In this document: one piece after another, positions 34,871-61,423 of the stretch
How positions within the stretch are numbered: the stretch's first letter is position 1
Layout of the letters: every line of letters begins with the position of its first letter
Assembly: GCA_963761355.1 (NCBI GenBank)
Contig: CAVXHC010000016.1
Location: 2,482 to 66,481, forward strand
DNA: 64,000 nucleotides
Origin: an uncultured Solirubrobacteraceae bacterium
GTDB lineage: Bacteria > Actinomycetota > Thermoleophilia > Solirubrobacterales > Solirubrobacteraceae
Direction of reading: 5' to 3'
The notes under the pieces: generated by a model
Database searches by the model: none
Told to the model about the DNA's origin: nothing
Seen by the model: the letters and a program-made list of their open reading frames with translations, nothing else
Position numbers and translations under genes: made by a program

Positions 34871-35293
34871 GTGTCTGAGGAGTCCACGACCCCCGACCTG
34901 GTCGAGCTTTCCTATCGACGATTCGAGGCCATAAACAGACGGGACCTGGAGGCGGTGGTGAGCTTCTTCGCCGCTGACGCCATCTGGGACATGTCGCCAG
35001 TCGACATGGGCATCGTCGAGGGCCGCGGCGCAATACGCAATGCGCTCAAAACCTGGTGGGAGATGTTCCCAGGGATCGTGTCTGAGCTTGACGAGGTTCT
35101 CGACCTCGGCAACGGCGTTGTGCTCCAGGTTGTCACCCAGCGAGGTCACCCGGCCGGCAGCTCGGGCGAACTTCGCCAGCGTTCTGGCCGCGTTTCCATC
35201 GTGGTCGATGGCCTGATCGAGGCCCTGACGTCCTACAACGACATCGACGAGGCCCGCGCTGCTGCCGAACGCCTCGCCGAGTCGAGGGGGTAA
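34871..35293 (+). CDS. SnoaL-like NTF2 protein, type A (MSEESTTPDLVEL...ERLAESRG)
   Basis: FEAINRRDLEAV..FAADAIWD; GATACT 7 nt before the start. Confidence 0.88.
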   Translation: MSEESTTPDLVELSYRRFEAINRRDLEAVVSFFAADAIWDMSPVDMGIVEGRGAIRNALKTWWEMFPGIVSELDEVLDLGNGVVLQVVTQRGHPAGSSGELRQRSGRVSIVVDGLIEALTSYNDIDEARAAAERLAESRG

Positions 35294-35388
35294 GCGTTGT
35301 CGGAGGAGAGCTCATGACGCCCTGGACGTCACCCGCGACGGATGAAATGGGCGAGACTTGGCCCGCGAACCGAGGAGGATGAGCGCTT

Positions 35389-35781
35389 ATTTCTAAGCAG
35401 AACGTGGAGATCGTGCGCCAAGCGTGGGAAGCCTTTGCGCGCCACGACAATGAGTCGGCCCTGCGCCTCTACGACCCCGAGGTTGAGATACATGTCGGGT
35501 TCCTCGGCGGCGAGGTCTACCGCGGTCTTGCGGGTGTCCGAGATTTCTTTCGTGACTGGTTGGCGGTCTGGGACGAGTACGGATCGACGGTGGAGGAGTG
35601 GATCGACGCCGGGGATGATGTGGTAGCGGTGATACGTATATGGGGTCGCGGAAGAGCGAGCGGGGTCGGGGTCGAGGAACGTCAATCGCATGTCTGGACC
35701 TTGCGGGACGGCAGGCTCTGGCAGTTGCAGCGCTATGAGACGAAAGCTGACGCGCTCAAAGCCGTGGGGCTGACGGAGTAG
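35389..35781 (+). CDS. SnoaL-like NTF2 protein, type B (ATT at the homologous start; GTG 35404 is an alternative)
   Basis: (I)SKQNVEIVRQAWEAF...ALKAVGLTE. Confidence 0.82.
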   Translation: MSKQNVEIVRQAWEAFARHDNESALRLYDPEVEIHVGFLGGEVYRGLAGVRDFFRDWLAVWDEYGSTVEEWIDAGDDVVAVIRIWGRGRASGVGVEERQSHVWTLRDGRLWQLQRYETKADALKAVGLTE

Positions 35782-35784
35782 GCG

Positions 35785-36189
35785 ATGTCGCAGGCGAACG
35801 TGGAGATCGCGAAGCGCGTGATCGACGCTTTCAACGGGCGGGATGTCGATTCCATCTTCAAGTGCGTGAACTCGGATATCGAATGGTTCCCTGCGCTTCC
35901 CGGAGTCGTGGAGGGCGACGGCTACCGTGGCCGCGAGGGCATTGAAATGTACTTCGAGGAAATCTCGAACACGTGGGAGGAGTACAGCGTGGTGGGGCAG
36001 GACTTTCGCGATCTCGGCAACGACCGAGTTCTTGTTCTCAGCCGGGTAAAGGGACGTGGTAGAGGCAGTGGCGTCCAGGTCGATTCGCCGATTGGTGTCA
36101 TCTATGACTTTCGCGACGGCAAGATGTCGCGCGTCCGCGCCTATCTCAATCACGGCGAGGCGTTGCGGGCGGCGGGCGTCTCCGACTAG
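35785..36189 (+). CDS. SnoaL-like NTF2 protein, type B
   Basis: MSQANVEIAKRVIDAFN...EALRAAGVSD. Confidence 0.88.
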   Translation: MSQANVEIAKRVIDAFNGRDVDSIFKCVNSDIEWFPALPGVVEGDGYRGREGIEMYFEEISNTWEEYSVVGQDFRDLGNDRVLVLSRVKGRGRGSGVQVDSPIGVIYDFRDGKMSRVRAYLNHGEALRAAGVSD

Positions 36190-36192
36190 CAG

Positions 36193-36230
36193 TCAGGTGC
36201 CGGTGTCCGGCGTGAGGCCGAGGTCGACCG
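36193..36230 (-). pseudogene. orphan 3' tail of a type-C SnoaL gene (...DLGLTPDTGT*)
   Basis: Matches the 3' end of the gene at 45325. Confidence 0.6.
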
Positions 36231-36279
36231 ACACGGTGCTTCCTCGTGATGCGAGCGCGACGTCGCACGCGGTCCCGGC

Positions 36280-36450
36280 TCCTGGTCTGGACGACGACCG
36301 CTCGTCCGTGCTCCGACGCACGAGACGCTCGCTTAGCTCCCGCGACAGCCGTCTGAGCTCGGGCGGTATGAGCCGTCGAGCGTCGTCCCGAGCGCACGCG
36401 TGACGTAAAGGCGCTGAGAGACTCGCAGTGCTCGGGAAGCAGGCGTGAGA
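36280..36450. repeat. array of palindromic repeat sites
   Basis: ggacgacgaccgctcgtccgtgctccgacgcacgagacgctcgcttagc (cf. 52420-52475); cgggaagcaggcgt. Confidence 0.7.
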
Positions 36451-36671
36451 CGCCCCCGCTCGCCGAGTCGACTGTACCGCTGGCTACGTTGGAATAGCCG
36501 CCGCTCACCGAGGCGCCCGTACTGCTGGCCGGTTGTTTCACCACCGCTCACCGATCCACCGTTGCTCGTGGCTTTGCTAGTGAGACCGCCGCTCCTGTGC
36601 TCGCCGGGCTCGGACTACGTCCCCGGCCAGCTGCTCGGGGTCAGCGACGGGCTCGCCGTCGGAATGGCAGG

Positions 36672-37934
36672 CTAGGCGCCGCCGGCCGGCCGCTGGCCCT
36701 CGCGCGGCCCCGGCGTGAAGCTCACCGGGAGAGAGGTGATCATGTTCGCCCAGTTCGAGACTAGACGCTGAGGCTCCCCGGCACTGCCAATGTCGGGCAT
36801 GCGACGCGCGAGCTCCTCGAACAGGACGCGCAGCTCCAGCCGCGCGAGGCCGGCTCCGAGACAGAAGTGGCGGCCGCCTCCCCCGAACGCGTCGTGGTCG
36901 GGCTTGGCGCGGCGGATGTCGAACCGCTCCGGCTCGTCAAAGACATCCTGGTCGCGCGACGCCGACGAGTACCACATTACGACCCTATCGCCCTCGGCGA
37001 TCGCGTGTCCGTCGATCTCGGTGTCCCTGAGCGCGGTGCGCGCGAACCACTGCACCACCGACGTCCAGCGCAGGATCTCCTCTACCGCGCCCGCGATCAG
37101 CGACGGGTCGGCGACCAGCTCAGCGAGCTGGTCGGGGTGCTCGAGCAGCGCGCACATGCCGCCGGCGGCCGTGTTGCGCGTGGTGTCGTTGCCGGCGAAG
37201 ACAAGCAGCCCGAAGAACACGAGGATCTCGCTGTCATCCAGCTGCTGGCCGTCGACCTGCGCATTGCGCAGCCGCATCACGAGGCTCTCGTCGTCTCCGG
37301 CGGCGGCCTGCTTCGCTATCTGTTCATGCAGGTAGCCGGCCATCTCCACGAACACCTCAGTCGCCGCGGCCGGCTCGGGTGAGCGCTGCGCCTCCTCGAT
37401 CTGGTCAGTCCATGCATGCAGGCGAGGAATGTCCTGGTCGAGGCAGCCCATCAGATCGACAAGAACGCCGAGCGGCACGGGAACCGCGATGTCGCGAGCG
37501 AAGTCGCACGCGCCCAGCTCAATCACGGCATCGAGAACGCGGGTTATGCGCCCGCGAACTGCGTCCTCGAGCTTTGCGACGGTATGCGGGGTGAACGCGG
37601 TCTGCAGGATCGCGCGGTACTTGGTGTGCTCCGGCGGGTCCTTGTACAGCAGCAGATTCCGGGTCAGGTCGAGCGGCACGACCTGGTCAGGCTCTAGGAA
37701 GATGCCCCGCTTCCAGGATGAGAATGTCGCAAAGTTGCGGCTGACTGCAGCGATGTCGGCGTGGCGCGTTAGCGACCAGAAGCCAGATCCATCGGGGAGC
37801 GTGTTCCAGCGGACCGGCGTCTCGGCCCGCATGCGTTCGAACAGCTCGTGCGGCGGGCCATCCTGGAACCAGACCGGGTCCATCAAGTCGACCTCTGCGA
37901 GATCGACTCCGTCAACTGAGCCTTTGGTCACCAT
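36672..37934 (-). CDS. cytochrome P450 (CYP124/125/142-like)
   Basis: FAGNDTT, EEILR and FGGGGRHFCLGA; start trimmed to MVTKG. Confidence 0.93.
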   Translation of the reverse strand: MVTKGSVDGVDLAEVDLMDPVWFQDGPPHELFERMRAETPVRWNTLPDGSGFWSLTRHADIAAVSRNFATFSSWKRGIFLEPDQVVPLDLTRNLLLYKDPPEHTKYRAILQTAFTPHTVAKLEDAVRGRITRVLDAVIELGACDFARDIAVPVPLGVLVDLMGCLDQDIPRLHAWTDQIEEAQRSPEPAAATEVFVEMAGYLHEQIAKQAAAGDDESLVMRLRNAQVDGQQLDDSEILVFFGLLVFAGNDTTRNTAAGGMCALLEHPDQLAELVADPSLIAGAVEEILRWTSVVQWFARTALRDTEIDGHAIAEGDRVVMWYSSASRDQDVFDEPERFDIRRAKPDHDAFGGGGRHFCLGAGLARLELRVLFEELARRMPDIGSAGEPQRLVSNWANMITSLPVSFTPGPREGQRPAGGA

Positions 37935-37978
37935 CCCTACCCCTCTCCCAGCCAAAACATGTAAGCCTCCGACACCGC

Positions 37979-38404
37979 CTACCCCCGTTCCTTGGCGAGG
38001 CGTTCGGCGGCGACACGGGCCTGGTCGATGTCGAGGTAGGTCGTAACCCGCTCGACCAGGATCCCCCGCCACAGGTAGACGAGTGCCTGCCGAGATTGAA
38101 CGTGACCGGCACTGCCAACGGGGCGGGCGTTCTGGCGCGCGACGGCAAGGGCAACTCCGCTACCAAGGTCCTGAGCCTGCTCCACAGCGAGCTCAAGCTT
38201 TTCATAAGCGTCGACCCACTCCTGCCACAAGCCACGCATGGCTGCATGATTCTCGAAGGTGCCCAAGCCCAAGGGCGAGAAGTCCCAGACGGCATCGGGA
38301 GCGAAGTGGCTCAGGATCGCATCCCAGTCGCCACGCTCAGCAGACGCCCAGAAACCGCGCACGAGCTCGACCAGGTCGGGGGTAGTGGACTCCTCGCACA
38401 TCAC
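37979..38404 (-). CDS. SnoaL-like NTF2 protein, type A
   Basis: MMCEESTTPDLVEL...AAERLAKERG; GATACT 7 nt before the start. Confidence 0.88.
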   Translation of the reverse strand: MMCEESTTPDLVELVRGFWASAERGDWDAILSHFAPDAVWDFSPLGLGTFENHAAMRGLWQEWVDAYEKLELAVEQAQDLGSGVALAVARQNARPVGSAGHVQSRQALVYLWRGILVERVTTYLDIDQARVAAERLAKERG

Positions 38405-38438
38405 GCAGTGGAGTATCCCGGACCGCTGCTTTCGCGGC

Positions 38439-40024
38439 GAGGCTGTTTCGTAAACATTCGCGCGTCCGTCAGCGCGGGCGTTCGCGGTGGGTTTCGCGCT
38501 CTGAGGGGCGTGGTGGTCTTGGCAGCGGTGAGACAGATGGGCCCGACCGGGCGTTCCCGGGCCCCTTTCAGGCCCCGGCGGTCGCTATTTGGCGGCTGTG
38601 GAGCTTCAGCAGATTGTGCGTAGCGGTGATTAGTCGCCATTCCGACCTGGCGGCGGCTCTGCCACGGCGTTGGAAGCGATCCATCCGGCGGTTGAACTTC
38701 GTATGTCCGAACACCGGCTCGATCATCGCCTGGCGTTTTCGGTAGAGCGCGTGTCCGAGCTCGGTGGAGAGCACTCGTCGCATGTGTGCGTAGGCGCCGC
38801 CATCCCACCCTGGACGGGTGCCCTTGCGGTGGCCGGCGTCGGGCGGGATCAGTACCTGGATCCCACGGTCGATGGCGTTCTCCATTTGCTCCCTGTGCCA
38901 GTAGCCGGCGTCGGCGAGCAGCACCCCCGGCGTCTCTGTGACACCCGCCGCCTGAAGCTCGCTCTGGGTCGCGTCGAGCATCGGCTGCAGATGCCCGAAA
39001 TCTGGTGAGTCGACCGTGACCTCGGCGGCGATCACGACCTGGTTCTCGTTGACGGCGGCTTGGGCGTTGTAGCCCTGAACGTAGCCGCGCGCGACCTTCA
39101 ACATGCGCGAGTCCGGGTCAGTCAGGTTGATCTTCCCCGCGGGAGTCTCGGGTGGTGAGTAGGGGGTTGGTGAGGCCCCGAGGCGGCGACCTCTGCTGTC
39201 CCGTGCATGCACGCGGTAGTGCTCGTAGGCGGCGTTCGCGCGGGACTCCGCCCACAGCTCCTCCTGCAGACGGCGCTTGGCCTCTTTCAAGCGAGCCGGG
39301 CGAGAACGCGGGATCGGCTTGGCTTCCTTGGCGCGTTCCTCATCGAGCTGGCGTTTGGCCTCGCGCAGCCAGCCGCGACGGCCCTGGCTGGTCGAGAGAT
39401 GCTCCGGCAGCTCATCGCCGCGCTTATCGCCATAGAGCTCGTCCTCGGCTGCGTCGACTTCGGCGGCCTCTTTGAGGATCTCCCGCGCGATCTGATCGAA
39501 GTCCGCGTTCTGCTCGCGGCTCGCGTTGGCGTGGACCTTGGTGCCGTCGACGGCGATCGTGCCGACCTTGACCATCCCCGCTCGCGCGCACAGCGTGAGC
39601 ACGCTGGTAAAGAGTCCGGCCAGAGCGTCTGAGTGCTCTGAACGAAAGCGATTGATCGTCACGTGATCGGGCGCGAGGTTCGACGCGATCACCCGGTAGG
39701 CGACGTCCTCCAGGCACGCGCGCTCGATACCTCGCGATGAGCGCTGTCCCTTCGCATAGGCGTAGAGCACGATCGCGACCATCATCGCCGGGTCATAGGC
39801 CGCGCGACCCCAACCGTCCTCGCGATATCGCGCGTAGAACGGCGACAGATCCATGTCCTTGACCGCGTCGATCACAAACCACGCCAGATGGTTCTCCGGC
39901 AGCCACTCGCGCAGCGAGGGCGACATCAACAACAACTGCTCACGATCACATTCGATGAAGTTCTGGGGCATCCCAGAAGTGCTTAACGACACCGGACAGA
40001 CCGGGGGGTTTGCGAAACAGCCTC
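38439..40024 (-). mobile_element. IS1182-family insertion sequence, 1586 bp
   Basis: 17-bp IRs GAGGCTGTTTCG(T/C)AAAC; 5-bp TSD GCGGC at 38434-38438 and 40025-40029. Confidence 0.9.
38568..39971 (-). CDS. IS1182 transposase
   Basis: GRAAYDPAMM...PDHVTINRFR...IAVDGTK...TDPDSR...GYNAQ...LADAGY...YRKRQAMIEPVFG. Confidence 0.93.
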   Translation of the reverse strand: MPQNFIECDREQLLLMSPSLREWLPENHLAWFVIDAVKDMDLSPFYARYREDGWGRAAYDPAMMVAIVLYAYAKGQRSSRGIERACLEDVAYRVIASNLAPDHVTINRFRSEHSDALAGLFTSVLTLCARAGMVKVGTIAVDGTKVHANASREQNADFDQIAREILKEAAEVDAAEDELYGDKRGDELPEHLSTSQGRRGWLREAKRQLDEERAKEAKPIPRSRPARLKEAKRRLQEELWAESRANAAYEHYRVHARDSRGRRLGASPTPYSPPETPAGKINLTDPDSRMLKVARGYVQGYNAQAAVNENQVVIAAEVTVDSPDFGHLQPMLDATQSELQAAGVTETPGVLLADAGYWHREQMENAIDRGIQVLIPPDAGHRKGTRPGWDGGAYAHMRRVLSTELGHALYRKRQAMIEPVFGHTKFNRRMDRFQRRGRAAARSEWRLITATHNLLKLHSRQIATAGA

Positions 40025-40162
40025 GCGGCTAAAGCGAGCGCCCGGCCAGCCCGGGGTCAGCGCTTGGAACGACGAGCACTCGTCAGGACTGCCTCTGCGG
40101 ACGCTTCTGCTTTCCACGGGAGCTGGCGTCCTTTCCACTCCGTCATTGAGCAAGCGGAGAAA

Positions 40163-40250
40163 CGTCCCGAATTGTGTCCCGAACTCGGGCATTTGGTCCG
40201 GCCCACTTCACCGAAGAAGTGGAGAAACGTGTCCCGAAACATGTCCCGAA
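40163..40250. repeat. integrase arm-type sites, right (four YGTCCCGAA)
   Basis: Copies at 40163, 40175, 40230 and 40242. Confidence 0.75.
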
Positions 40251-40332
40251 CTCCGCAAAGCTGAGGCCATCTGAGCCCATTTCGGGTGCCAAAATATGGC
40301 TCACGAAAGCCAATATCGAGGCCTCTCGTGAG

Positions 40333-40388
40333 ACTCGTAATGAAGGGGTCCGGGGTTCGAGTCCCCGCGTCGGCTCTGGAAAGGCCCA
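40333..40388 (+). other. 3' half of tRNA-Thr(CGT) plus 13 bp; attR of island 2
   Basis: Identical to 22529-22584. Confidence 0.93.
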
Positions 40389-40394
40389 ATAGCT

Positions 40395-40441
40395 TTGCCA
40401 TGGTAGGGAAGAGGCCGCCGGTTCGAGTCCGGCGCTGGGCT
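40395..40441 (+). other. 3' fragment of a tRNA-Thr(GGT)-like gene; relic att site
   Basis: ATGGTAG-GGAAG-AGGCC-GCCGG-TTCGAGT-CCGGC-GCTGGGC-T; no 5' half upstream. Confidence 0.7.
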
Positions 40442-40607
40442 TAAAGTCCCTGCAACGCAGCGACTTTGGGCGCACTGCGGCGTCATCTTGAATGGGCAGA
40501 GGTGCTACGCCTAAGTCCACGACGGACGTCGAACTGTCCTGCAAATGGGTCCTTTTCGCGGGCGACGACCCCATTACGCGGCAGTAGGGGTCGCTGCTTA
40601 ACAGCGC

Positions 40608-41249
40608 TCAGCCGACCTGGTACTTGATGTGCGTGACGCCGGGTGCGTCGAGGGCCCGGACCTGCGTAAGCTTGAGAGCCCCGCGCTGGAGACCCTCGAA
40701 CAGGCGCTCGCCGCCGGCCATGATCACCGGCGCGATCGAGATATCAACCTCGTCGACCAAGCCTTCGGCCAGGTATTGGTTTACGACCGACGCGCCGCCG
40801 GCGAGCCAGATGTCTTGCCCCTGAGCGGCGTCCTTGGCCTGCGCGAGTGCCGACGCGATCCCGTCGGTGACGAAGTGGAAGGTGGTGCCGCCCTTCATCT
40901 CAAGCGGCTCGCGCGCGTGGTGCGTGAGCACGAACACCGGATGGTGGTAGGGCGGGTTCTCACCCCACCAGCCTGGCCACGGATCGGCGCCCCAGGGTCC
41001 CGTGCCGCCTCCGAACATGTTGCGTCCCATGATGGTCGCGCCGATGTGTGCGCGGCGCTCCGCTACCACCGCGGAGCTGGCGTTAGTCTCGCCGCCCTGC
41101 TCGCCGTGCATCTCGCGGAACTCCTTGAGCGGGAAGAACCATTTGTGCAACTCCATCCCGCCTACTCCGAGCGGGTTCTTCTCGTTCTGGTCTGGGCCTG
41201 CGACATAGCCGTCCACCGACATCGTGATGCTGAGTCTCAGATTGCTCAT
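40608..41249 (-). CDS. dihydrofolate reductase-like (RibD C-terminal) protein
   Basis: SITMSVDGYVAG...IMGRNMF...IWLAGG...GLVDE. Confidence 0.9.
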   Translation of the reverse strand: MSNLRLSITMSVDGYVAGPDQNEKNPLGVGGMELHKWFFPLKEFREMHGEQGGETNASSAVVAERRAHIGATIMGRNMFGGGTGPWGADPWPGWWGENPPYHHPVFVLTHHAREPLEMKGGTTFHFVTDGIASALAQAKDAAQGQDIWLAGGASVVNQYLAEGLVDEVDISIAPVIMAGGERLFEGLQRGALKLTQVRALDAPGVTHIKYQVG

Positions 41250-41447
41250 ATCCACTCCTGCCTGGGTTTTCGAATTCTGCCGACAAAGACGCCGGAGCGC
41301 GTGAAGCAGGACAACCTGGCGAATGCGATCGCCCAAGAGCGGCGCGATTTCAATGCAGAGACATGCTTATCGCACAGCTGATCCATCGCTTTCCGAGGCA
41401 CAGTGTGGCGCCCTGAGCAGCCGTGTCGGCCCGATGCGGCCGGGGGG

Positions 41448-41855
41448 CTAGACGGGCGCCAGCAGCCGAGCGACAGCGTTCTCGATCGCCACGAGCAGCG
41501 TCCACGTCGAGTTCGCATGGCCGATGTGCTCGCCGAGCGGGATTGTGGCAGCATCCTCGACCAGCTCGGTGAGCGCTGACTCCATCCGTTCAACCAGGCA
41601 GTCGCGAATTGCATCGGTGATTCCGAGCGGCACGTCCGCGACCGGCGGATCTCCGCTCAGCGCATTCGTCAGGTCCCATGCTTCGCGGACCCGCTCGCGG
41701 GACCGCGCCAGGTCGAACTCCCCCGGGCCGCCGTGCCTTCGGTCAGCGGCGTACTTCGCGTTCCACTCATGATCGCGTATCACCGCCGCGGAGTAGACGA
41801 GCGCCCCCACCTGCTCGGGATCAACCGCCAGTCTCACTGTGGCTAGGCTGCGCAT
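41448..41855 (-). CDS. hypothetical protein
   Basis: 135-aa ORF with plausible composition. Confidence 0.45.
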   Translation of the reverse strand: MRSLATVRLAVDPEQVGALVYSAAVIRDHEWNAKYAADRRHGGPGEFDLARSRERVREAWDLTNALSGDPPVADVPLGITDAIRDCLVERMESALTELVEDAATIPLGEHIGHANSTWTLLVAIENAVARLLAPV

Positions 41856-45324: not shown

Positions 45325-45729
45325 TCAGGTGCCGGTGTCCGGTGTGAGGGCGAGGTCGGCGAGGGCACGGTCGCGGTCTGTGTAGTTGGTGATCTTGGTG
45401 ACCTTGCCGTCGTGAATATCGAATACCTCAGCGCACCGTCTGGTCACCGGCACGCCGCTTTTCCTGCCGCGCCCGCTCCATCGCGTCAGCAACAGAACAC
45501 GGTCGCCGTCGAACTCCGTGTACTCGTCCACCTCGGCGGAGAAGTCGACGATATCGCTGAAGAGGTTGCGCATAGCTTCCGCGAGCCCCACGAGGCCCGT
45601 GTAGGTGCGCGGCTCAAGCGCGTCGACGACGGCGTACTCGATCTCGGGGTCGGCCCACTCGGCCTTGCTGTAGTCGCCGTGTTCGATGGGCTCCTAGATT
45701 GAGCGCACTAGGTCCAAGTTCGAGGACAC
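45325..45729 (-). pseudogene. SnoaL-like type-C gene with an in-frame amber at codon 12
   Basis: VSSNLDLVRSI*EPIEHGD...LADLALTPDTGT; TAG at 45694-45696; GATAAT 7 nt before the GTG. Confidence 0.8.
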
Positions 45730-46738: not shown

Positions 46739-46817
46739 GCCGAGCCGGCACGCGGCTTCACTTGCGCTCGCCTGTGGATGCGAGCGCCACGGCGGACAAC
46801 ACTCAGACTCCTGGACC

Positions 46818-46920
46818 GGACGAGCCGCGAGCGTCTCGTCAGGCACTCGCGAGGCGCCTGCTTCGCCATGGCGAAAGCAGTAGCCGGTGGCGCGGACGCG
46901 CCGACTGCTGTTGGTCGTCC
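46818..46920. repeat. 103-bp dispersed repeat, copy 3 (outside island 2)
   Basis: Central hairpin CTGCT-TCGCCATGGCGA-A-AGCAG. Confidence 0.95.
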
Positions 46921-46996
46921 ATTCCGATCGTCTCGCGAGCCCCATGGGGACGGCTCCTTCCACGGGAAGGCGAGAGTCCTGCCGTCCGCGCAAGCC

Positions 46997-52920: not shown

Positions 52921-53439
52921 ATGCCGCAGGAGAACGCGAGATTGGTTCAGCGCGCGATCGGGGCGATCAACGCGAGGGACATCGAGGGCTATCTCGCCTG
53001 CTGCACCGAGAACGTCAAGTTGGAGACGCCATTAGCCGCCGTTGGAGGGGTGTACGGAGGAATCGACGGCATCAGGCGTTTCTTTACGGACATCGAGGAA
53101 GCCGCACCCGATTTCCGGATCGAGCTTGACGGCGTCGAGGAGGTCGATAGCAAGCGCGTGATCGCGTTCATGCGCACTGGCTCCACGGGCCGCGCCAGCG
53201 GCATTCGCATGGCAGCGCCTACCCAGACCAACGTGTACGACCTGATCGACGGCAAGATCAGTCACGTTCGCATCTTCTTCGACCGTCAGGAGGCCCTCAA
53301 CGCCGCGGGCCTGGAGGAGCAACGGCTTGGAGTATCGATCAGTCGAGGTCGAAGGCGGCCCGGACGGCATTGGCGAGGGCTGTCTCTTGAGGGTCGAGCA
53401 GGATGCCGATCTGTGCTCCCAAAGCGCTCGCGGGGATAG
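52921..53439 (+). CDS. SnoaL-like NTF2 protein, type B; usual stop after AAGLEE lost
   Basis: MPQENARLV...DRQEALNAAGLEE, then read-through antisense into mazF. Confidence 0.8.
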   Translation: MPQENARLVQRAIGAINARDIEGYLACCTENVKLETPLAAVGGVYGGIDGIRRFFTDIEEAAPDFRIELDGVEEVDSKRVIAFMRTGSTGRASGIRMAAPTQTNVYDLIDGKISHVRIFFDRQEALNAAGLEEQRLGVSISRGRRRPGRHWRGLSLEGRAGCRSVLPKRSRG

Positions 53440-54303: not shown

Positions 54304-54467
54304 GCTCGCTTCAGGAACCTCAAACCGAACGCCGCGAACACCAGGACAATCCCGACGTTCACCATCAGGCGCTCCCAGAACCGATGCCTGAAGAACAAGA
54401 TGTCCACGCCGACCACGACGGCTACCAGCGCGAGCACGTAGAGCACGACGCCTGCCTGCTTTCCCAT
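54300..54467 (-). CDS. 55-aa two-TM protein (not in the ORF track)
   Basis: MGKQAGVVLYVLALVAVVVGVDILFFRHRFWERLMVNVGIVLVFAAFGLRFLKRA. Confidence 0.7.
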   Translation of the reverse strand: MGKQAGVVLYVLALVAVVVGVDILFFRHRFWERLMVNVGIVLVFAAFGLRFLKRA

Positions 54468-54509
54468 CGTTCCACCCTACCGCTCGAGGCTTCTCTCGGT
54501 TTCACACAT

Positions 54510-54662
54510 TCAGCGCCGAATGATCCCACGCATGCTAAGCGCGGCAACGAGCAGGAATACAAGGACCGCGTCCGCTCCAACGCCGATCGCTACTAACACG
54601 ACCGCCAGCAACAGCCCCACGAACACCGCGATGCCGAACACGACGAACAGCAGCAGGATCAC
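54510..54662 (-). CDS. 50-aa hydrophobic peptide (not in the ORF track)
   Basis: TACGAT 6 nt before the GTG; almost entirely hydrophobic, ending IIRR. Confidence 0.55.
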   Translation of the reverse strand: MILLLFVVFGIAVFVGLLLAVVLVAIGVGADAVLVFLLVAALSMRGIIRR

Positions 54663-54734
54663 GACTCAATCGTATCCATCCACGGGAGCCTTGCAAAAGG
54701 GCACGGACCAGGCCCAGCTTCTCGGCCGAGATCC

Positions 54735-55127
54735 TTACCCTCGCTCCTCGGTGAGGCGTTCGGCGACTGCAAGGGCCTCGTCGATGTGGGTGTAGGTCGT
54801 GTTGCGCACGATCAAACCGTCGATCCATTCGACGACCGATGCGTAGCGAAGCTGAACGGAACCGTTGCTCCCGACGATATGCGCCTTCTGCAATATCACG
54901 GCAAACGTGAGGCCGTTGCCGAGATCACGAATCTCCTCGGCCTTCCGCTCAATGTCGGAGTATGAGCTGCGCCAGTCCTCGAAGACGCCCATCCCCCAGG
55001 GCGATGCGTCCCAGACAGCGTCGGGAGCATAGAAGCCGAGGGCTGCCTCGATGTCCTCGCCCGCCTCGATGCTTCTGCGTGTCAGCTCGACCAAGTCGGG
55101 GGTCGTGGACGCGGCAGACATCGTCAA
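54735..55127 (-). CDS. SnoaL-like NTF2 protein, type A (probable internal deletion)
   Basis: SAASTTPDLVEL...AERLTEERG; lacks the GRxAIRxx helix seen in paralogs. Confidence 0.8.
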   Translation of the reverse strand: MTMSAASTTPDLVELTRRSIEAGEDIEAALGFYAPDAVWDASPWGMGVFEDWRSSYSDIERKAEEIRDLGNGLTFAVILQKAHIVGSNGSVQLRYASVVEWIDGLIVRNTTYTHIDEALAVAERLTEERG

Positions 55128-55175
55128 GCCAGTATCCCGTAGGCGCGGTTGGGCGGCCAGCTTGAGGATGTTGGT

Positions 55176-55619
55176 CTAATCGACCAGTTCGACCTGCACC
55201 TCGCGTGGGTCGAGTGTCTTGCCGCAGACAGCACAGACGACCTCGGCGTGAGTGTGCTCTCCGCATGGCCCGTGACGCAGCCGCAGTTGCTCTCCACTGG
55301 TCGGCAGGTGGACGTCGGCCCAGTGCAGCGTCGCGAGGATCGTGCCATAGAGATCGCGCCCTGCATCGGTCAGGACGTACTCGTACCAATCGGGGTCTTT
55401 CCGGTAGCACCGTCGCTCGAGCAATCCATCTTCGACCAGCACCTTGAGTCTCGAGGCCAACACGTTGCGGGCAATTCCCAGGTTGCGGACCATCTCGCCA
55501 TACCGGCGCACGCCGTAGAACGCCTCGCGCAGGACGAGGATCCTCCAGCGGTCGCCGAGCATGTCGGCCGCACGCTCGATCCCATCCGGGCGGCGCGGGG
55601 TGTGGTTCCTGGCGGGCAA
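55176..55619 (-). CDS. HxlR-family winged-HTH regulator
   Basis: LGDRWRILVLRE...IARNVLASRLK...YEYVLTDAG. Confidence 0.9.
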   Translation of the reverse strand: MPARNHTPRRPDGIERAADMLGDRWRILVLREAFYGVRRYGEMVRNLGIARNVLASRLKVLVEDGLLERRCYRKDPDWYEYVLTDAGRDLYGTILATLHWADVHLPTSGEQLRLRHGPCGEHTHAEVVCAVCGKTLDPREVQVELVD

Positions 55620-55649
55620 CTGGTTTTCGCTCTCGAATGGATCTGTTGC

Positions 55650-55661
55650 GCAACTAGTTGC
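55650..55661. promoter_or_regulatory. palindromic operator candidate
   Basis: Perfect GCAACTAGTTGC between the divergent HxlR and hydratase genes. Confidence 0.55.
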
Positions 55662-55681
55662 TCGATGGTACTACTAGCGCC

Positions 55682-56536
55682 ATGATCAACGCCAGCAGCA
55701 CCAAAACTGATTTCGAGTTGCTTCGCTATACGGAGGACGGGCCGATCGCGCGGATAACGCTCGATCGCCCCGAGAAGAGAAACGCGCTCTCAATCGCGCT
55801 GAGCGACGAGCTGATCAGGGCGATCGACCGGGTCCAGGCCTCGACGGCTCTCAAGGTGCTCGTGATCCAGGGGGCTGGAGATACGTTCTGCGCCGGCGAC
55901 GACATCACTGAGATGTTCACATGGGGCGACGCCAACGGCGTCATGCGCCGCGCCCGCCTCTATCAGACCATGGCCAACGCGCTCGAGGAGCTTGACAAGG
56001 TCACCGTGGCGGCGGTCGACGGATTCGCTGTCGGCGGCGGACTTGAGATCACGATGACCTGCGACTTCGTCATCGCCACGCAACGCGCTCGCTGGGGGAT
56101 GCCGGAGGTCGACGTCGGCATCACGCCTGGCTGGGGCGGCACGACACGCCTGGCGCGGCTGATCGGCAGGCGCATGACCAAGGAGGTCAACCTCCTCGGC
56201 GCGCTACACCCGGCGGTCCGCGCGGTGCAGCTCGGACTCTGGAATCGAGTCGTTCCCGACGAGCAGTTGGATGCCGAGGTGGATGCGCTGGTCGAGGTCC
56301 TGCTCTCCAAGAACCAGCAGGCAGTGCGCCAGCTGAAGTTCATCATCAACCGCGGAGTCGAGGCGGATCTGTACACGGCACAGGGTTTCGAGGCACTCTC
56401 GGCCGGACTCACCGGAGCAGTCAGCGGCGGCTGGCACGTGCCCGACGCGGACCAAGGCGCCGGCGTGGTCGGCTTCACCGAGAAGGACTCGCTGTGGCAG
56501 ACACGCCGCGCGCTCGCCAGGGACTTTTGGGTTTAG
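55682..56536 (+). CDS. enoyl-CoA hydratase/isomerase family
   Basis: DRPEKRNAL, FCAGDDI, GFAVGGGLE, MPEV..GITPGWGG. Confidence 0.93.
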   Translation: MINASSTKTDFELLRYTEDGPIARITLDRPEKRNALSIALSDELIRAIDRVQASTALKVLVIQGAGDTFCAGDDITEMFTWGDANGVMRRARLYQTMANALEELDKVTVAAVDGFAVGGGLEITMTCDFVIATQRARWGMPEVDVGITPGWGGTTRLARLIGRRMTKEVNLLGALHPAVRAVQLGLWNRVVPDEQLDAEVDALVEVLLSKNQQAVRQLKFIINRGVEADLYTAQGFEALSAGLTGAVSGGWHVPDADQGAGVVGFTEKDSLWQTRRALARDFWV

Positions 56537-56588
56537 GGGCCGATCGCCAGAGCTCTCTCAGCGGATGAGTCAGTCGCTACAGGCCGTC

Positions 56589-57143
56589 TTACACGCGTCC
56601 GTAGCGAAGGTAGACGACGCGAGAGCCAAACGTGCGTGTCTCGATCAGCTCGAGGCGGATCTTGTTCTCCGAGCGAGGGAAGTAGGGCGTGCCGCCGCCG
56701 AGTAGGACAGGACTGACGAACAACCGCCACTCGTCGATCAGCCCGAGCTTCATACACGCGCCCGCCAGACCGGCGCCGCCGACCGCGATGTCCTTTCCGG
56801 GCTGCTCCTTGAGCCGGGAGACCTCCTCGCCGAGACCGTCCCTGGCCAGGGTGGTGTTACCGACCACGCTCTCCAGCGTCGTGGAGAACACGACCTTCGG
56901 CAGGGCCTTCCAGATTTGGGCGAACCTGACCTGCTCCGCGGCAAGCGGACTCTCCTCAGCGGTCTCCCAGTAGACCATCGCTTCGTACAGCCGCCGTCCA
57001 CAGAGATGCACGCCGGTCTCCTGTACCTGCTCGGTGTGGAACACAAACAGTTCCTCGTCGGGCACCGTCCAGTCGATCGCGCGATCGGGTCCGGCGATGT
57101 AGCCGTCCAGCGACACGGTCATCGAGTAGATCAGCTTGCGCAT
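56589..57143 (-). CDS. dihydrofolate reductase-like (RibD C-terminal) protein
   Basis: YSMTVSLDGYIAG...GRRLY...GGAGLA...LIDE. Confidence 0.9.
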   Translation of the reverse strand: MRKLIYSMTVSLDGYIAGPDRAIDWTVPDEELFVFHTEQVQETGVHLCGRRLYEAMVYWETAEESPLAAEQVRFAQIWKALPKVVFSTTLESVVGNTTLARDGLGEEVSRLKEQPGKDIAVGGAGLAGACMKLGLIDEWRLFVSPVLLGGGTPYFPRSENKIRLELIETRTFGSRVVYLRYGRV

Positions 57144-57178
57144 CAAGACCTCGTTCGTCGTTGCTCTCACGCAGCAAC

Positions 57179-57616
57179 CTACGGTCGTTCGACGAGCGCT
57201 TTGAAGTTGTGGAGAGCTTCTTCGAGACTCTTGGCGTTCAAGCGCTTAACGATGAGCGCGTCAGCGATCCTGCCGAACACGCCGCCCCGCAGCGCGTAAT
57301 CGAACGTCGTGGTGAGGCGTGTTCCATCGCCTTCCGGGGTGAGCTCCCAGCGAGCTCGCCCCGACATCATGCCGTCCATTTGGAGAAGCTGCAGCTTGCC
57401 CGGCTGGTACTCGAGAACCGTCTCAGTGATCGGCAGGGATATGCCCGCCGACTTCACCTTGAAGACCACCTTGCCTCCCTCGTCGGGGAAGGGAGCGGCG
57501 ATGTCGATCTCAGTCATGCCCGGATACCAGTCCGGCCAGCGACTGGCATCGCTCAAGAGCGCCATGGTCTCCAGCGGCGAGGCCTTGATCTGGACATTGC
57601 CTTGGACGATCGCCAT
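57179..57616 (-). CDS. SRPBCC/polyketide cyclase-like protein
   Basis: IKASP...WPDWYPG...WELTPEGDGTRLT...YAL. Confidence 0.85.
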   Translation of the reverse strand: MAIVQGNVQIKASPLETMALLSDASRWPDWYPGMTEIDIAAPFPDEGGKVVFKVKSAGISLPITETVLEYQPGKLQLLQMDGMMSGRARWELTPEGDGTRLTTTFDYALRGGVFGRIADALIVKRLNAKSLEEALHNFKALVERP

Positions 57617-57769
57617 CGTGTATCTCCCCGCTCTCGTTGTGTGTCGTTGTGCCTCCGCGACGCGGCTGCGGGAATGGGCTGTGGCCGAACCGGATAGATC
57701 CAGCGTCAAGCCGCCACGCTCCCCCGAGCCGGCGAGGCTCGCACCGTTTCTTCTCCAGTTGTCTGCGGC

Positions 57770-58294
57770 TCAGCCGCCGCTGTCGCGACCACGGCGTTGC
57801 GCCGTCACGATCGAGAAGCCGGCACCCATCAGGAGTAGGCCGATGCCGACCGTCCAGCGGAGGTCCAGGCCCGTGAACGGCAGCGTGGTCGCTTTTGTGG
57901 CCGGCGTGGTGGCGGTAGGGGTGGTCGAGGTAGTGCTGGTTTTCGCAGGCGCGGTTGTGCTCGTCGACTTCGGCTTGCTGCTTTCTTTCGACGGCAACGT
58001 GCCGGTTGCGGGTGTCGGCGTCGTTGCGGCAGGCGTCGTTGCGGCAGGCGTCGTTGCCGCCGGCGTCGTCGTCGTGGTCGTGGTCGTCGTGGTCGGCGTG
58101 TTCGGCGTCTGGCCATAGCCCGCCGTACCTTCGGCGGCGAGAGCTGCCGTGGGCATCACGAGCGCCATCGTCAGGGCCAGAACGGCCGACACCGACAAGA
58201 TCAAGCTGCCCATCGCGCTGGACGAGCCTCTCTTCATCGGCGCTGCGTCTGCTGTCTGGGGCCTACTCGAGGCCAAGACATCATTCCGAGTCAT
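57770..58294 (-). CDS. Thr/Pro/Ala-rich LPxTG cell-wall-anchored protein
   Basis: Signal peptide; TTPAA repeats; LPFTG followed by a TM helix and RRGR; start may be 58237. Confidence 0.8.
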   Translation of the reverse strand: MTRNDVLASSRPQTADAAPMKRGSSSAMGSLILSVSAVLALTMALVMPTAALAAEGTAGYGQTPNTPTTTTTTTTTTPAATTPAATTPAATTPTPATGTLPSKESSKPKSTSTTAPAKTSTTSTTPTATTPATKATTLPFTGLDLRWTVGIGLLLMGAGFSIVTAQRRGRDSGG

Positions 58295-58731
58295 GCCAAC
58301 CTCCCTTGATGATGTGGTGATCGCTTCAGTCCTCGCTTAGAAGCCTGCGTGACAGCATCGTACAGAGCAGCCGAGGGCAGCCGTGCGCCGAGCCTACCCG
58401 TCTCCTCAGGGCTTAGACCGACTTTCCGCGAAAGACTACGAGCAACCACGCCGTAGGGCTACTGAATCGAGACGTTTTGGCGCCTTCGCGAGACGGCCTC
58501 ATAGGACTCGTCGAGCGGCTCGAGCAGGGACGCTCTGGACCACGGTCACGCGCACCGTCGGCTCGCGACATCCAGAGCCGAGGAGAGGCAGCCAGGCGCG
58601 GCCGCAATCACCGCAGCGTGACAGGACTGACACCAAGCGACGGTCAAGCTACGGGCGCAGTCGGTCGATGAACGCCTAAAGCTGCGCAAAGCGAAAGCAG
58701 GATCAGCAGGCATGAATCGCGTGAGCCGTCG

Positions 58732-60588
58732 ATGAGACGGTTGCTGGCGTCACCGAAGCGCAGCGTTGTCGTGTTGACCCTGGTCGCACTGGGCGCGATC
58801 GCCCTGTTGGCCGTCGGCAGCATCGTCGTCGCGTCCCACGAGCAGACCAGCGTCGTCGACAAGCAGGTGCGAACGACGACGGCGGTCAGCTCGGTGGTCA
58901 TCGGCCAGCAGACGTCGAATCTGGTGGCCCTGGTTGAGAGCTACGCGAGTCGTCCGTCACTTACCAGCGCCGTCGCCCCCCGCAAGGGTGGCGCCGCGGA
59001 GGTCGAGGCCGCTCTCGCTGGTCTCGCGCACGCTGTCCCGGGCATCTCCGCCTCGTTTGTCACCGACCAGCACGGCACGTCGCTCAGCACCTATCCCCCC
59101 GAGCCCGCGGTCTATGGCACGAACTTCGCCTACCGAGACTGGTTCAAAGGGCTGGTCGCTTCGGGTCGTCCCTTCGTCGCAAACGCCATCCAAACCAAGG
59201 AGGCAAGTCACGCGCTCGCGATTACCGTGACGGACTACATCCGGGCACCGGACGGCCATCCGATCGGCGTCCTCGGCGTGAACTACAGCCTCGAATCGAT
59301 TGGCGCGTTCGCCGCCGGCGTGGGCAGAGCTCAGGGCATCACGCTGAACGTCACCGACAGGGCCGGGACCTCGTTGACCGCAGGAGGCCGGCATGGCCTC
59401 GTCTCGCTTGCGAGGGACCCCGGCGTGCAGGCGGCTCTCGCGGGGCGCAGTGGTCTGCTCGACTACTCGCCGCTCTTGGCCGACGGGCGCCACGGAGCCG
59501 AGGTGTTGTCGGCTTACGGACCGGTTCCCGCAACGGGCTGGACGGTGACGGCCTCAGTCAACAAGAGCGTCGCGCTTTCCGCGCTGGCCAGGCTCAGAGA
59601 CGCGGTTCTCGCGATCACGGCGCTGCTCGTCCTCATCCTGCTCGCGACGATTCGTATCGTGACCCGCTCCGACGGGCGCCGGCGCGATTCCGAGCGGGAG
59701 ACCGCCAACAGAGATCGAGAGCTGGCCCGAGTTCTGGAATCGACCAGCGAGGCGTTCCTCTCAACCGATGGCGCAGAAGTGATCACCGCATGGAGCGATC
59801 AGGCCGAGAAGCTGTTTGGCTGGGCCGCGGACGAAGTACTGGGGCGGAAGCTTGCCGACACGGTGATCCCGGCGGCGGAGCGTGACGAGAACGCTGGAGC
59901 TGAGGCCCGCCACCGCGCCGGGGCAAACTCGGCCGTTTTCGGGACGCGTATTGAGGCTACAGGGCTCCACCGTGACGGCCATGAGATTCCTGTGGAGATG
60001 AGCTCGTGGCCACACGAAGACGGCGACGGGCTGAGTGCGTTCGCCCACGACATCACCGAGCGCGTGACCGTTCGCGCAGAACGCAGGGAGCTGCAGGCCA
60101 GCCTGAGACGGCTCGCTGACCATGATCCCCTGACCGGCCTCTGGAACCGGCGGCGCTTCGAGGAGGAGCTCCAGCGCGAGGCTGCGCGATGCAAGCGCTA
60201 CGCCGAGCAGTCCGCGGTGCTGATGATCGACCTTGACGACTTCAAGAACGTCAACGACAGCCACGGCCACCAGGCCGGTGACGACCTGCTCGAGCTGGTC
60301 GCGAGCCGGATTCGCGCGACCCTGCGCGAGACCGACTCGGTGGCACGAATCGGCGGCGACGAGTTCGCGGCCATCCTGCCCAACATCGGTCCCGAGGCCG
60401 TCAACCAGGTGACGGACAAGCTGCGCAAGGCCATCCTCGCGAGCCGCATCACCGTCGACGGCACAACGATTGGCGTCGGTGCCAGCATCGGCAGCCAAAC
60501 TCTCGACGAGAACACCCCGGACCAGCAGGTGGCCATGGCCAAGGCCGACGCCGCGATGTATCAGATCAAGGCCGCCGCGCGCAGATGA
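58732..60588 (+). CDS. diguanylate cyclase (Cache-like, TM, PAS, GGDEF)
   Basis: HDPLTGLWNRR, IDLDDFK.VND..GH..GD and intact GGDEF. Confidence 0.95.
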   Translation: MRRLLASPKRSVVVLTLVALGAIALLAVGSIVVASHEQTSVVDKQVRTTTAVSSVVIGQQTSNLVALVESYASRPSLTSAVAPRKGGAAEVEAALAGLAHAVPGISASFVTDQHGTSLSTYPPEPAVYGTNFAYRDWFKGLVASGRPFVANAIQTKEASHALAITVTDYIRAPDGHPIGVLGVNYSLESIGAFAAGVGRAQGITLNVTDRAGTSLTAGGRHGLVSLARDPGVQAALAGRSGLLDYSPLLADGRHGAEVLSAYGPVPATGWTVTASVNKSVALSALARLRDAVLAITALLVLILLATIRIVTRSDGRRRDSERETANRDRELARVLESTSEAFLSTDGAEVITAWSDQAEKLFGWAADEVLGRKLADTVIPAAERDENAGAEARHRAGANSAVFGTRIEATGLHRDGHEIPVEMSSWPHEDGDGLSAFAHDITERVTVRAERRELQASLRRLADHDPLTGLWNRRRFEEELQREAARCKRYAEQSAVLMIDLDDFKNVNDSHGHQAGDDLLELVASRIRATLRETDSVARIGGDEFAAILPNIGPEAVNQVTDKLRKAILASRITVDGTTIGVGASIGSQTLDENTPDQQVAMAKADAAMYQIKAAARR

Positions 60589-60589
60589 C

Positions 60590-60797
60590 CTACCCCCGTT
60601 CCTGCGCGAGGCGTTCGGCGCCAGCGCGAGCCTCTGGCGTGTCACCGGAGGACACGACATGGGAAATCAGGCCCCGCTCCCACACGAACACGCAGCATCG
60701 CCTGGGCGCGATGGCGAGGCTCTCATGTCAACGGCGAGAAGGCGGATTTCGACTGCCGGAGGGGTCGGTCCGCGCTCTGCACACTCCTTTCAGACAG
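60590..60797 (-). pseudogene. internally deleted type-A SnoaL gene
   Basis: Starts CTG TCT GAA after the type-B stop; ends VFVWERGLISHV...EARAGAERLAQERG*. Confidence 0.7.
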
Positions 60798-60800
60798 CGC

Positions 60801-61202
60801 CTACTGCTCAAGCCCGACGGCCTCGAGGGCCTCAGACCAAGTCGGAAACGAGCGAACCTCGCGGAACGTCCCGTCGACGAAGCCCGAAATCACAAATCCG
60901 CGTCGTTGACTGACCTCAGCCTCCGAGCGCCTGATACGTCCAACCATGTCAACGAGCGCGACAACCCGATCTTGCGCGTCGCGGATGTCGTGGACCTCAT
61001 ATCGGAAGTCATCGAAGTTCTCGGAAAAGCCCGCCGCGAGCCTTCGCATGCCGTCATGCCCATGGTATGCCGACTCGTCCAACCAACGATCGATCGGGTA
61101 CCAGACGACGTCGCGCGAGAAGAATGAGAGCGAAGCGTCGATTCCTTCCTCGCTAAAGGTCTGGAACGCGTTTCGCACGATCTCCACGTTCTGCTGCGGC
61201 AT
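60801..61202 (-). CDS. SnoaL-like NTF2 protein, type B
   Basis: MPQQNVEIVRNAF...EALEAVGLEQ. Confidence 0.88.
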   Translation of the reverse strand: MPQQNVEIVRNAFQTFSEEGIDASLSFFSRDVVWYPIDRWLDESAYHGHDGMRRLAAGFSENFDDFRYEVHDIRDAQDRVVALVDMVGRIRRSEAEVSQRRGFVISGFVDGTFREVRSFPTWSEALEAVGLEQ

Positions 61203-61205
61203 CGC

Positions 61206-61286
61206 CTACCCGCGCTCCCACGCGAGGTGTTCGCCCGCAGCACGCGCGAGCTCGACCAGGTCAGGGGTTGTCGACTCCTCTACCAT
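61206..61286 (-). pseudogene. collapsed type-A SnoaL minigene, 26 aa
   Basis: MVEESTTPDLVEL fused directly to ARAAGEHLAWERG*; GATACT promoter retained. Confidence 0.85.
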
Positions 61287-61423
61287 CACTGGGCCAGTAT
61301 CTCGCAGCGGGCGCTTGGCTCTATAGCCCGAGCCAACCGCTACCGGATGGCAGGATCCCCAGCCGGCCAGGCCGACGCGGTTGTCTCAGGCCTCGTGCTC
61401 GTGTCGCCGTGCAGCCTTCGGAC

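Follow-up and report, generated by a model that had tools for sequence, protein, structure and literature searches.

Introduction

Tandem immunity genes with similar DNA blocks at their 5' and 3' ends are known as esaG in Staphylococcus aureus and tipC in Streptococcus; through recombination between these blocks, genes are lost or multiplied and chimeras arise (Garrett et al. 2022, PMC9484751). Here we describe arrays of small genes for NTF2-fold proteins of the SnoaL_2 family in an uncultured Solirubrobacteraceae bacterium, starting from a stretch of 64,000 nucleotides (the window) that corresponds to C16:2482-66481 of a 4.03 Mb assembly in 21 contigs. By analogy, esaG and tipC appear to be the closest described behaviour, since both architecture and recombination match: strings of tandem, non-identical small paralogues with DNA-similar, conserved end blocks, and recombination between the blocks, are found in both. 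The arrays described here differ in having the NTF2/SnoaL_2 fold, Thermoleophilia as hosts, and no toxin partner that we could find; in having a block that covers an exact in-frame TAG-GCG-ATG junction carrying a ribosome-binding signal; and in having cassettes that cross species and families and are scattered over ~36 regions per genome.

Integrons are the main known gene-cassette systems and are common in Proteobacteria; to our knowledge, they have not been described in Actinobacteria. Like integrons (IntI, attI, and attC, including arrays that lack an integrase), the Solirubrobacterales arrays may consist of a promoter at the head followed by short, mostly promoterless single-gene units, and these units are gained, lost, and reshuffled, with single units recurring in different genomes. 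Unlike integrons, they have no attC-like hairpin at the borders and no consistently adjacent integrase; the borders lie inside coding sequence, and all cassettes belong to one protein superfamily.

At the borders themselves, the arrangement resembles termination-reinitiation coupling, in which a stop codon and the next start are a few nucleotides apart and a Shine-Dalgarno (SD)-like motif is present in the last codons of the upstream gene (Huber et al. 2019, PMC6728339; PMC12548453). Both the close stop/start spacing and the SD-like motif are found here. The usual arrangement is an ATGA or TGATG overlap, whereas here there is a fixed 3-nt spacer, a near-exclusive TAG, and a conserved frame, and this layout recurs at every family boundary, behind a first cistron that is probably leaderless. 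No paper on this NTF2 cassette system was found in the literature searched. We argue below that the constant gene ends reasonably likely serve two purposes, acting both as expression signals and as the recombination homology of single-gene cassettes.

A gene family with constant ends

The window has a G+C content of 66.6%, and its closest proteins and loci come almost exclusively from soil-derived metagenome-assembled genomes of uncultured Solirubrobacteraceae or Solirubrobacterales. Translation and Pfam searches gave an inventory of four full type-A genes, four type-B genes, one type-C-like gene, and several stubs (Table 1). All seven full window genes scanned matched Pfam SnoaL_2 (PF12680) with 39-60 bits, compared to a cut-off of 27; the type-A gene A5 and the type-C-like copy lay outside this seven-gene scan and were found by tblastn and with a family profile built for this study. 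DNA and protein alignments showed that the family members of the window have similar ends and diverged middles. A 32-nt type-A start motif was present with 0-3 mismatches at three sites (34877 on the plus strand, 38364-38395 and 61249-61280 on the minus strand; chance expectation 0), and the junction sequence GGGTAGGCGATGYCG at four (35776, 37970, 52912, and 61197; chance expectation 0.01).

A preliminary description of the window had claimed an expansion of SnoaL/NTF2 paralogues with conserved ends and divergent middles, and this is confirmed by the motif counts, Pfam, and the alignments. The shared A-B junction it reported also holds, being present at the four sites above and canonical in 120 of 121 family junctions. 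Its gene list required revision. There are indeed four full type-A genes, but the copy near 61290 that had been counted is a minigene of 26 aa, while A5 had been missed; nor do all type-A genes end in GGGTAG, given that A1 (and A5) ends in TAA. The four type-B genes exist, but the NVEI pattern attributed to them does not extend to B3, which begins with ENARLV and has lost its stop, and B1a is without a canonical start. The one type-C gene is present, although as an N-terminally short copy.

The expansion is not local to the window but genome-wide, and it belongs to a family that spans the whole order. The family profile detected 88 SnoaL_2-like domain matches on 87 open reading frames (ORFs) in 36 regions of this genome. 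Classified by their termini, 19 full and 8 partial matches are type A, 33 full and 1 partial are type B, 5 are type C, and the remaining 22 (15 full, 7 partial) are others. Type A is absent in 11 of 18 congeners; there are 16 and 22 matches in two others, 36 in one genome of another family, and up to 32 in this genome. A search of 1.84 billion representatives with the type-A profile recovered 234 proteins (50%-identity clusters) at E<=1e-30, nearly all from Solirubrobacterales, and the best hits included proteins of ~280 aa with two A domains. For A3 alone, cluster representatives at 80-91% identity number more than 120, and its orthologues are common in soil metagenomes.

Four parts are found family-wide: a gGGATACT box, conserved N-terminal and C-terminal coding blocks, and the in-frame TAG-GCG-ATG junction. 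The first ~40 and the last ~50 bases of the genes are nearly constant DNA. At the protein level, MSEESTTPDLVEL and DIDEARAAAERLAEERG were the most conserved stretches when 77 representatives were compared, each taken from its own 50%-identity cluster. An AlphaFold2 model of the A3-B3 read-through fusion (predicted local distance difference test, pLDDT, 87) gave each domain a helix-helix-strand-helix order followed by four strands, and the predicted domains match the alpha+beta cone fold of the NTF2-like superfamily, in which three helices pack against a curved sheet. Residues 1-9 are disordered in this model and a helix, 123-138, is added after the last strand, and the constant parts are thus peripheral to the NTF2 cone; as modelled, the type-A N-end MSEESTTPDLVEL would form the disordered tail and the start of helix 1, and the C-end DIDEARAAAERLAEERG the extra helix. 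Foldseek returned KSI, LEH, and TerC/SnoaL-like proteins at template modelling (TM) scores of ~0.8. NCBIfam matches were far under their cut-offs, with the exception of TIGR02246 for A3 (36.4 bits vs 33.95).

The constancy of the ends extends to synonymous codons. Codons that are not preferred come close to fixation in the ends but not in the cores (GAA 93% vs 18%, CGT 73% vs 19%, GCT 76% vs 16%, and TCC 90% vs 15%), as far as 50 nt from the junction. Among 19 paralogues of this genome, the median nonsynonymous (dN) and synonymous (dS) divergences were 0.20 and 0.64 for the N-end, 0.17 and 0.49 for the C-end, and 0.60 and 1.35 for the core, so that the ends show a ~2-3-fold reduction of both values relative to the core, at a similar dN/dS. 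The synonymous identity of the ends was ~0.7-0.8 regardless of core divergence. At matched core divergence, end identity was equal within and between genomes, and intragenomic gene conversion of the ends was rejected on this ground.

Purifying selection acts on the cores, which form stable orthogroups. Their dN/dS of 0.3-0.6 (0.4-0.6 in the comparison with the congener G015 described below) is raised relative to 0.12 for ppk and is still purifying. Hypervariable cores under positive selection were therefore not supported by the orthogroup dN/dS, nor by the orthologues, which are common at 80-91% identity.

Probable expression signals at the promoter box and the junction

Of 112 type-A genes, 92 have the gGGATACT box 6-11 nt ahead of the start, and 2 more have it 13 nt ahead; at A1, which starts with GTG, the GATACT box terminates 7 nt ahead of the GTG. 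By the general rules of actinobacterial promoters, this spacing fits a -10 element, implying a leaderless or nearly leaderless mRNA, and the first cistron of an array is probably leaderless or nearly so. The box is found upstream of type-A genes, and the internal junctions are too tight for a promoter.

In this genome and 79 related loci, 92 of the 158 consecutive same-strand family gene pairs have exactly a stop, 3 nt, and a start. After removal of near-duplicates, the stop was TAG in 120 of 121 junctions, with GCG as the spacer in ~80% and ATG as the start in ~80%. Genome-wide, the stops of long ORFs are TGA in 64%, TAG in 31%, and TAA in 5%. Just before TAG, the codons of type B read GGAGGAG and those of type A (GA)ACGGGGG, and the junction consensus is GGAGGAG-TAG-GCG-ATG or CGGGGG-TAG-GCG-ATG, with the SD-like run 4-12 nt before the next ATG. 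Judged from these sequences, translation of the cistrons would be coupled, beginning on a leaderless mRNA. A soil metatranscriptome contig from a relative covers an A-B junction and shows co-transcription, without 5' ends.

Three minigenes with 26, 35, and 42 codons left, each the result of an independent deletion of the core, are still in frame and retain the promoter and the junction, with an intact B gene behind them (Table 1). Deletions that spare the frame in this way would be expected were translation of the downstream cistron dependent on that of the upstream one. Natural fusions were also found. Because the junction is in frame, one T-to-C change suffices for a fusion, and at L059:3001-3816 (loci of related genomes are given as L, contigs of this genome as C) an A-B fusion of 272 aa has CAG in place of TAG at the junction and is otherwise intact; fused products are thus tolerated. 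In this genome, a two-domain A-A fusion ORF of 288 aa is present at C2:23019-23855.

Other explanations of the junction found no support. RNAalifold gave no consensus structure in 64 A-to-next or 57 B-to-next junctions, and a conserved RNA hairpin was rejected for both sets. For a trans-acting antisense RNA, no copy complementary to the junction was found outside sense SnoaL contexts. For amber read-through or recoding at the in-frame TAG, ARAGORN found no tRNA with the anticodon CTA.

Exchange of whole genes

The unit that moves is the whole gene cassette, drawn from a pool shared across species. Within this genome, C19 and C7 have 1.5 kb in common at 99-100% identity, and the cores beyond it are ~50% identical; the shared stretch stops 37-75 nt into an A gene, varying with the search. 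When A3-B3 of the window was compared with L085, the A cores were ~55-65% identical, identity jumped to 86-96% ~47 nt before the A stop and held to the end of B, and the flanks afterwards were unrelated. The same switch in identity was seen between C1 and L042, with a type-C gene. The breakpoints of these reassortments fall within the conserved N-end and C-end/junction blocks; downstream genes of 90-96% identity stand behind A cores of only 50-60% identity, with the change located in the C-end block.

Cores are also found in different combinations. Across 13 arrays, A cores of the A3 type or another type were paired with B cores of the B3 type or another type in all four possible ways, and the A3 cluster precedes 12 different downstream clusters. 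Among 202 informative ends of inter-locus matches with at least 93% identity, 103 were located in or beside family genes (18% of the sequence), and none fell at a relative gene position of 0.3-0.9. In 83% of the pairs of A genes that are 90-95% identical between genomes, neither flank was related.

Comparison of this genome with the congener G015 gave a dS of 0.53 and a dN of 0.066 for ppk, 0.19 and 0.071 for A3, and 0.13 and 0.078 for B3. The dS of A3 and B3 is below that of ppk, which dates the array to after the split of the two species. The A3-B3 array adjoins ppk in G015, while in this genome it sits behind a two-component system. A clean empty site was not found at the ppk locus of G015, where synteny stops at ppk. 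Between ppk and the A3-B3 array of G015, at L083:1600-2900, the consensus contains the motif GSHARGDAGEGSDFDFLVIE, which we read as a putative nucleotidyltransferase of a nucleotidyltransferase/HEPN-type pair; this would fit a flexible island.

Taken as a mechanism, these findings would work as follows. Each cassette would be one NTF2/SnoaL_2 gene, with a subfamily-specific core between constant ends, and the cassettes would make up a multigene family across Solirubrobacterales. The gGGATACT -10 box 6-11 nt before the first ATG would give a leaderless or nearly leaderless mRNA, and the GGAGG or GGGGG run inside the last codons, together with TAG-GCG-ATG, would let a ribosome that ends one cistron restart on the next. 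Since the blocks are common to every cassette, homologous recombination can rearrange whole cassettes; through shared blocks of ~40-80 nt, it would add, delete, duplicate, and swap them in frame, within arrays and, following DNA uptake, between species. The recombination would presumably be of the RecA type, and the conservation of the ends down to the codon would stem from both their expression and their recombination roles. The preliminary description had proposed the ends as homology handles for exchanging cores. This idea is supported in that breakpoints lie in the blocks, all four core combinations and 12 downstream clusters exist while 120 of 121 junctions stay canonical, and both dN and dS of the ends are low; the emphasis shifts, however, to whole cassettes from a shared pool, as opposed to intragenomic conversion.

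Weighing the alternatives

Several observations count against this interpretation. Match ends at gene edges partly mirror where similarity drops, and exchange through end homology cannot explain whole arrays between unrelated flanks. The blocks are short, with exact runs of ~20-35 nt, a length close to the minimum at which RecA recombines efficiently. The equal end identity within and between genomes excludes simple intragenomic conversion, so that a gene-pool model is required. In the A3 orthogroup, the synonymous codon identity was 0.83 for the ends and 0.85 for the core (5 sequences), and among 41 sequences 45-50% of the end sites were informative, with somewhat more homoplasy; the ends, being as variable as the core, are therefore not frozen. 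The family-wide similarity of the ends could be a mutation-selection equilibrium without exchange, and no structure was found by RNAalifold that would account for the conservation 20-50 nt upstream of the stop. The preliminary description had named two results that would speak against exchange, namely end synonymous sites as diverged as those of the cores and a phylogeny free of mosaicism; the former was seen in the A3 orthogroup, though not among distant paralogues, and mosaicism is clear. The end data fit either a family-wide equilibrium set by site-specific constraints or an end history decoupled by gene-pool exchange, which are not separable on these data alone.

An unlikely alternative, in our judgement, is that purifying selection is sufficient, with the shared terminal peptides kept for a partner or for stability, translation signals kept for their own sake, genes gained and lost in the ordinary way, and the ends having no part in recombination. 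This would agree with the termini being the most conserved parts of the protein in the 77 distant representatives, with the equal end identity within and between genomes, with ends that vary like the core inside an orthogroup, and with each core being a stable orthogroup in many metagenomes. However, if genes came and went by illegitimate events, 120 of 121 junctions would not have stayed canonical and in frame for every pairing of clusters. Three independent pairs show a switch in identity inside the blocks. In addition, dS is lowered together with dN in the ends while dN/dS is unchanged, and fixed non-preferred codons occur at distances of up to 50 nt from the junction. A site-specific system, in which a recombinase of an integron-like or Xer/dif-module-like kind acts on the junction or on the ~100-nt palindromes that flank arrays, seems to us quite improbable. 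It would account for entire arrays between unrelated flanks, for the palindrome, which at 9 or more of its ~22 sites precedes a first type-A gene by 66-100 nt, and for the related ~110-nt element after the last gene in six other genomes and three arrays here; in a few cases, a tyrosine recombinase gene is no more than 3 kb away from an array. Yet no recombinase is consistently beside the arrays (integrases at 6 of ~100 loci by neighbour clustering), ~4 of 25 PF00589 tyrosine recombinase matches lie within 3 kb of arrays where ~2 are expected, a weak enrichment, the gene-gene junction has no conserved hairpin, and half of the palindromic sites are not beside arrays.

The constant termini had also been proposed as pairing helices that dock neighbouring A and B proteins into heteromers; known parallels would be the paired MonBI/MonBII and the fused Lsd19. 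These polyether epoxide hydrolases are likewise encoded by neighbouring NTF2-fold genes that are sometimes fused, and they gave the best two-domain structure matches and weak sequence matches to the family. The tight coupling of adjacent cistrons and the natural fusions, both A-B and A-A and including the ~280-aa proteins with two A domains, keep the idea alive. Nevertheless, we consider it very improbable and found no positive support for it: partners are promiscuous, one A cluster being combined with 12 downstream clusters, 107 of 179 arrays are single genes, and minigenes without an A core would still drive a B gene. Single-chain AlphaFold2 gave no confident domain arrangement for the A3-B3 fusion (predicted TM score, pTM, 0.53), and its superposition on Lsd19/MonB reached a TM of 0.37 with a root-mean-square deviation of ~17 A at ~18% identity; the family here has dozens of copies per genome, and there is no polyketide gene-cluster context, with no polyketide synthase among the window neighbours. 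That the arrays could be a repertoire of orphan immunity proteins against polymorphic toxins, like esaG and tipC, is suggested by an architecture identical to theirs, in which blocks at the 5' and 3' ends of non-identical paralogues in tandem are conserved and recombine with one another (PMC9484751), by the patchy distribution among congeners described above, and by the raised dN/dS of 0.4-0.6. This possibility strikes us as the most far-fetched: no toxin-like gene was found beside any array examined, either in the window or among recurrent array neighbours, Pfam gives SnoaL-type families only and not Imm-NTF2, and the neighbours are metabolic genes.

We favour, as reasonably likely, gene ends that double as expression signals and recombination homology. 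A bolder version, which we put forward tentatively and regard as rather less than even in its chances, is that the order keeps an integrase-free cassette system in which the coding ends are universal adaptors, cassettes from the pool plug in frame into any array, and the ~100-nt palindromes mark seeding sites. If true, an abundant and almost uncultured soil lineage would have reached a cassette-like end by a route other than integrons, with short coding adaptors at both gene ends supplying expression signals as well as the homology for swaps between arrays and species. This would explain why the number of these genes ranges from none to dozens among genomes, and it would offer a case in which to study the influence of short conserved sequences on the evolution of operons and on horizontal transfer. 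The fixed TAG-GCG-ATG behind a probably leaderless first cistron would make a clean natural model for ribosome reinitiation. The large uncharacterised NTF2-fold family, transcribed in soil and with 234 clusters at 50% identity for type A alone, appears worth biochemical screening.

Elements at the array borders

An element of ~100 nt that is palindromic, being matched on both strands by nhmmer, occurs at ~22 sites in the genome. A1 is among the first type-A genes that have it upstream; it could be a terminator or insulator, a target of insertion sequences (IS), or a recombination site. A second element, of ~110 nt, follows the last array gene (Table 1). Its core, GCGAGCGTNTCG...GCCGAGACTGCT, is also found in a 59-nt repeat family of the window, and its predicted RNA fold is moderately better than that of shuffled sequences (z -2.35).

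The IS element inserted upstream of A2 is present in three copies in the genome that are 99.8-100% identical (C14:10174-11761, C16:40919, and C20:21140-22727). All three are 36-46 nt upstream of, or adjoining, a type-A start or promoter, and their positions suggest that this IS may prefer the promoter-proximal palindrome as its target.

Features and neighbouring genes

Table 1. Positions of family genes, gene remnants, and associated elements. Plain positions refer to the window; C, contig of this genome; L, locus of a related genome.
Feature	Position	Strand	Basis and remarks
Type-A promoter module with 13-codon stub	26718..26800	-	sequence; outside the range of the preliminary description; palindromic element adjoins at 26830-26941
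Palindromic element, sites in the window	26830-26941, 30902-31016, 32513-32618, 34686-34800, 36297-36394, 46813-46926	both	nhmmer
Palindromic element (~100 nt) before A1	34686..34800 (= C16:37167-37281)	both	nhmmer, repeat family D2; 71-82 nt upstream of A1
A1, type-A SnoaL_2, 140 aa	34871..35293	+	PF12680 E=8.8e-13; TAA stop
6-codon stub (TTG TCG GAG GAG AGC TCA TGA)	35297..35317	+	sequence; slot after A1
B1a, type-B SnoaL_2 (..ISKQNVEIV...ADALKAVGLTE)	35389..35781	+	Pfam E=2.6e-16
B1b, type-B, 134 aa	35785..36189	+	sequence, Pfam; joined to B1a via GAG TAG GCG ATG
Cytochrome P450	36672..37934	-	PF00067 E=1.2e-23; last cistron behind A2 and stub
12-aa stub, VSEAYMFWLGEG then stop	37937..37975	-	translation; slot after A2, ends GGGTAG, runs directly into the P450 start
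A2, type-A	37979..38404	-	motif, Pfam; ATG at 38401, then TAG GCG GTG
IS, 1588 nt, DDE transposase and DUF772	38438..40024	-	self-BLAST, Pfam; inserted 36 nt upstream of the A2 start
Type-C-like SnoaL_2, N-terminally short (...RDRALADLALTPDTGT)	45334..45684	-	hmmsearch E=1.2e-14, model positions 32-125
A3, type-A, 138 aa	52501..52917	+	Pfam, sequence
B3, type-B	52921..53439	+	Pfam, sequence; joined to A3 via TAG GCG ATG
A5, type-A, 127 aa (MSAASTTPDLVEL...)	54738..55121	-	tblastn, sequence; short internal deletion, TAA stop, without downstream cassette
Orphan C-terminal piece of type-A gene (...EARAGAERLAQERG then stop)	60593..60712	-	tblastn
B4, type-B, 133 aa	60801..61202	-	Pfam E=1.5e-11
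GAGATACT box and collapsed type-A minigene, MVEESTTPDLVELARAAGEHLAWERG then stop, 26 aa	61206..61303	-	sequence; N-end fused in frame to C-end
Further collapsed minigenes of this kind	C14:13350; C2:190076		sequence
~110-nt element just past the B3-type stop, other genomes	L078, L083, L085, L092, L093, L059
~110-nt element, this genome (G000)	C20:19793-19862, C14:17833-17881, C16:132821-132898

Some genes of the window depart from the family pattern in ways not captured by Table 1. In B1a, ATT stands at the usual start position of the family, and the ORF call begins at GTG 35404, within the NVEI stretch. The domain of B3 ends at ~53319, and the loss of the stop codon results in an ORF of 172 aa; its orthologue at C14:17882-18277 is 81% identical by tblastn. 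The stub after A1 looks like a remnant of the start of the following cassette, and the collapsed minigene at 61206 is still connected to B4 through TAG GCG ATG.

Neighbour clustering at ~100 loci showed no gene family that recurs beside the arrays; the top clusters were transposases, integrases, regulators, and assorted metabolic genes. In the window, the neighbours include a P450, hydrolases, a two-component system, and an enoyl-CoA hydratase, and neither the clustering nor the Pfam annotation of the window yielded a consistent functional partner. The preliminary description had envisaged a diversifying repertoire for small-molecule binding or detoxification. Diversification does not fit with cores that are stable orthogroups; the small-molecule role is speculation from the fold family and a few scattered neighbours (P450, hydrolases), which would fit small-molecule enzymes or binders.

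Two paralogues with a RibD_C domain (dihydrofolate-reductase-like), at 40608-41336 and 56589-57170, both on the minus strand, are located in the same accessory region as the arrays, which also has two alpha/beta hydrolases, the P450, and the enoyl-CoA hydratase. At 26197-26412, three tandem repeats of 72 nt, 67-71% identical to the first copy, are probably part of a repeat-containing coding region. ARAGORN also made a tRNA-like call of 98 nt at c[208447,208544] with a four-base anticodon (ggag); the call is probably spurious or contains an intron.

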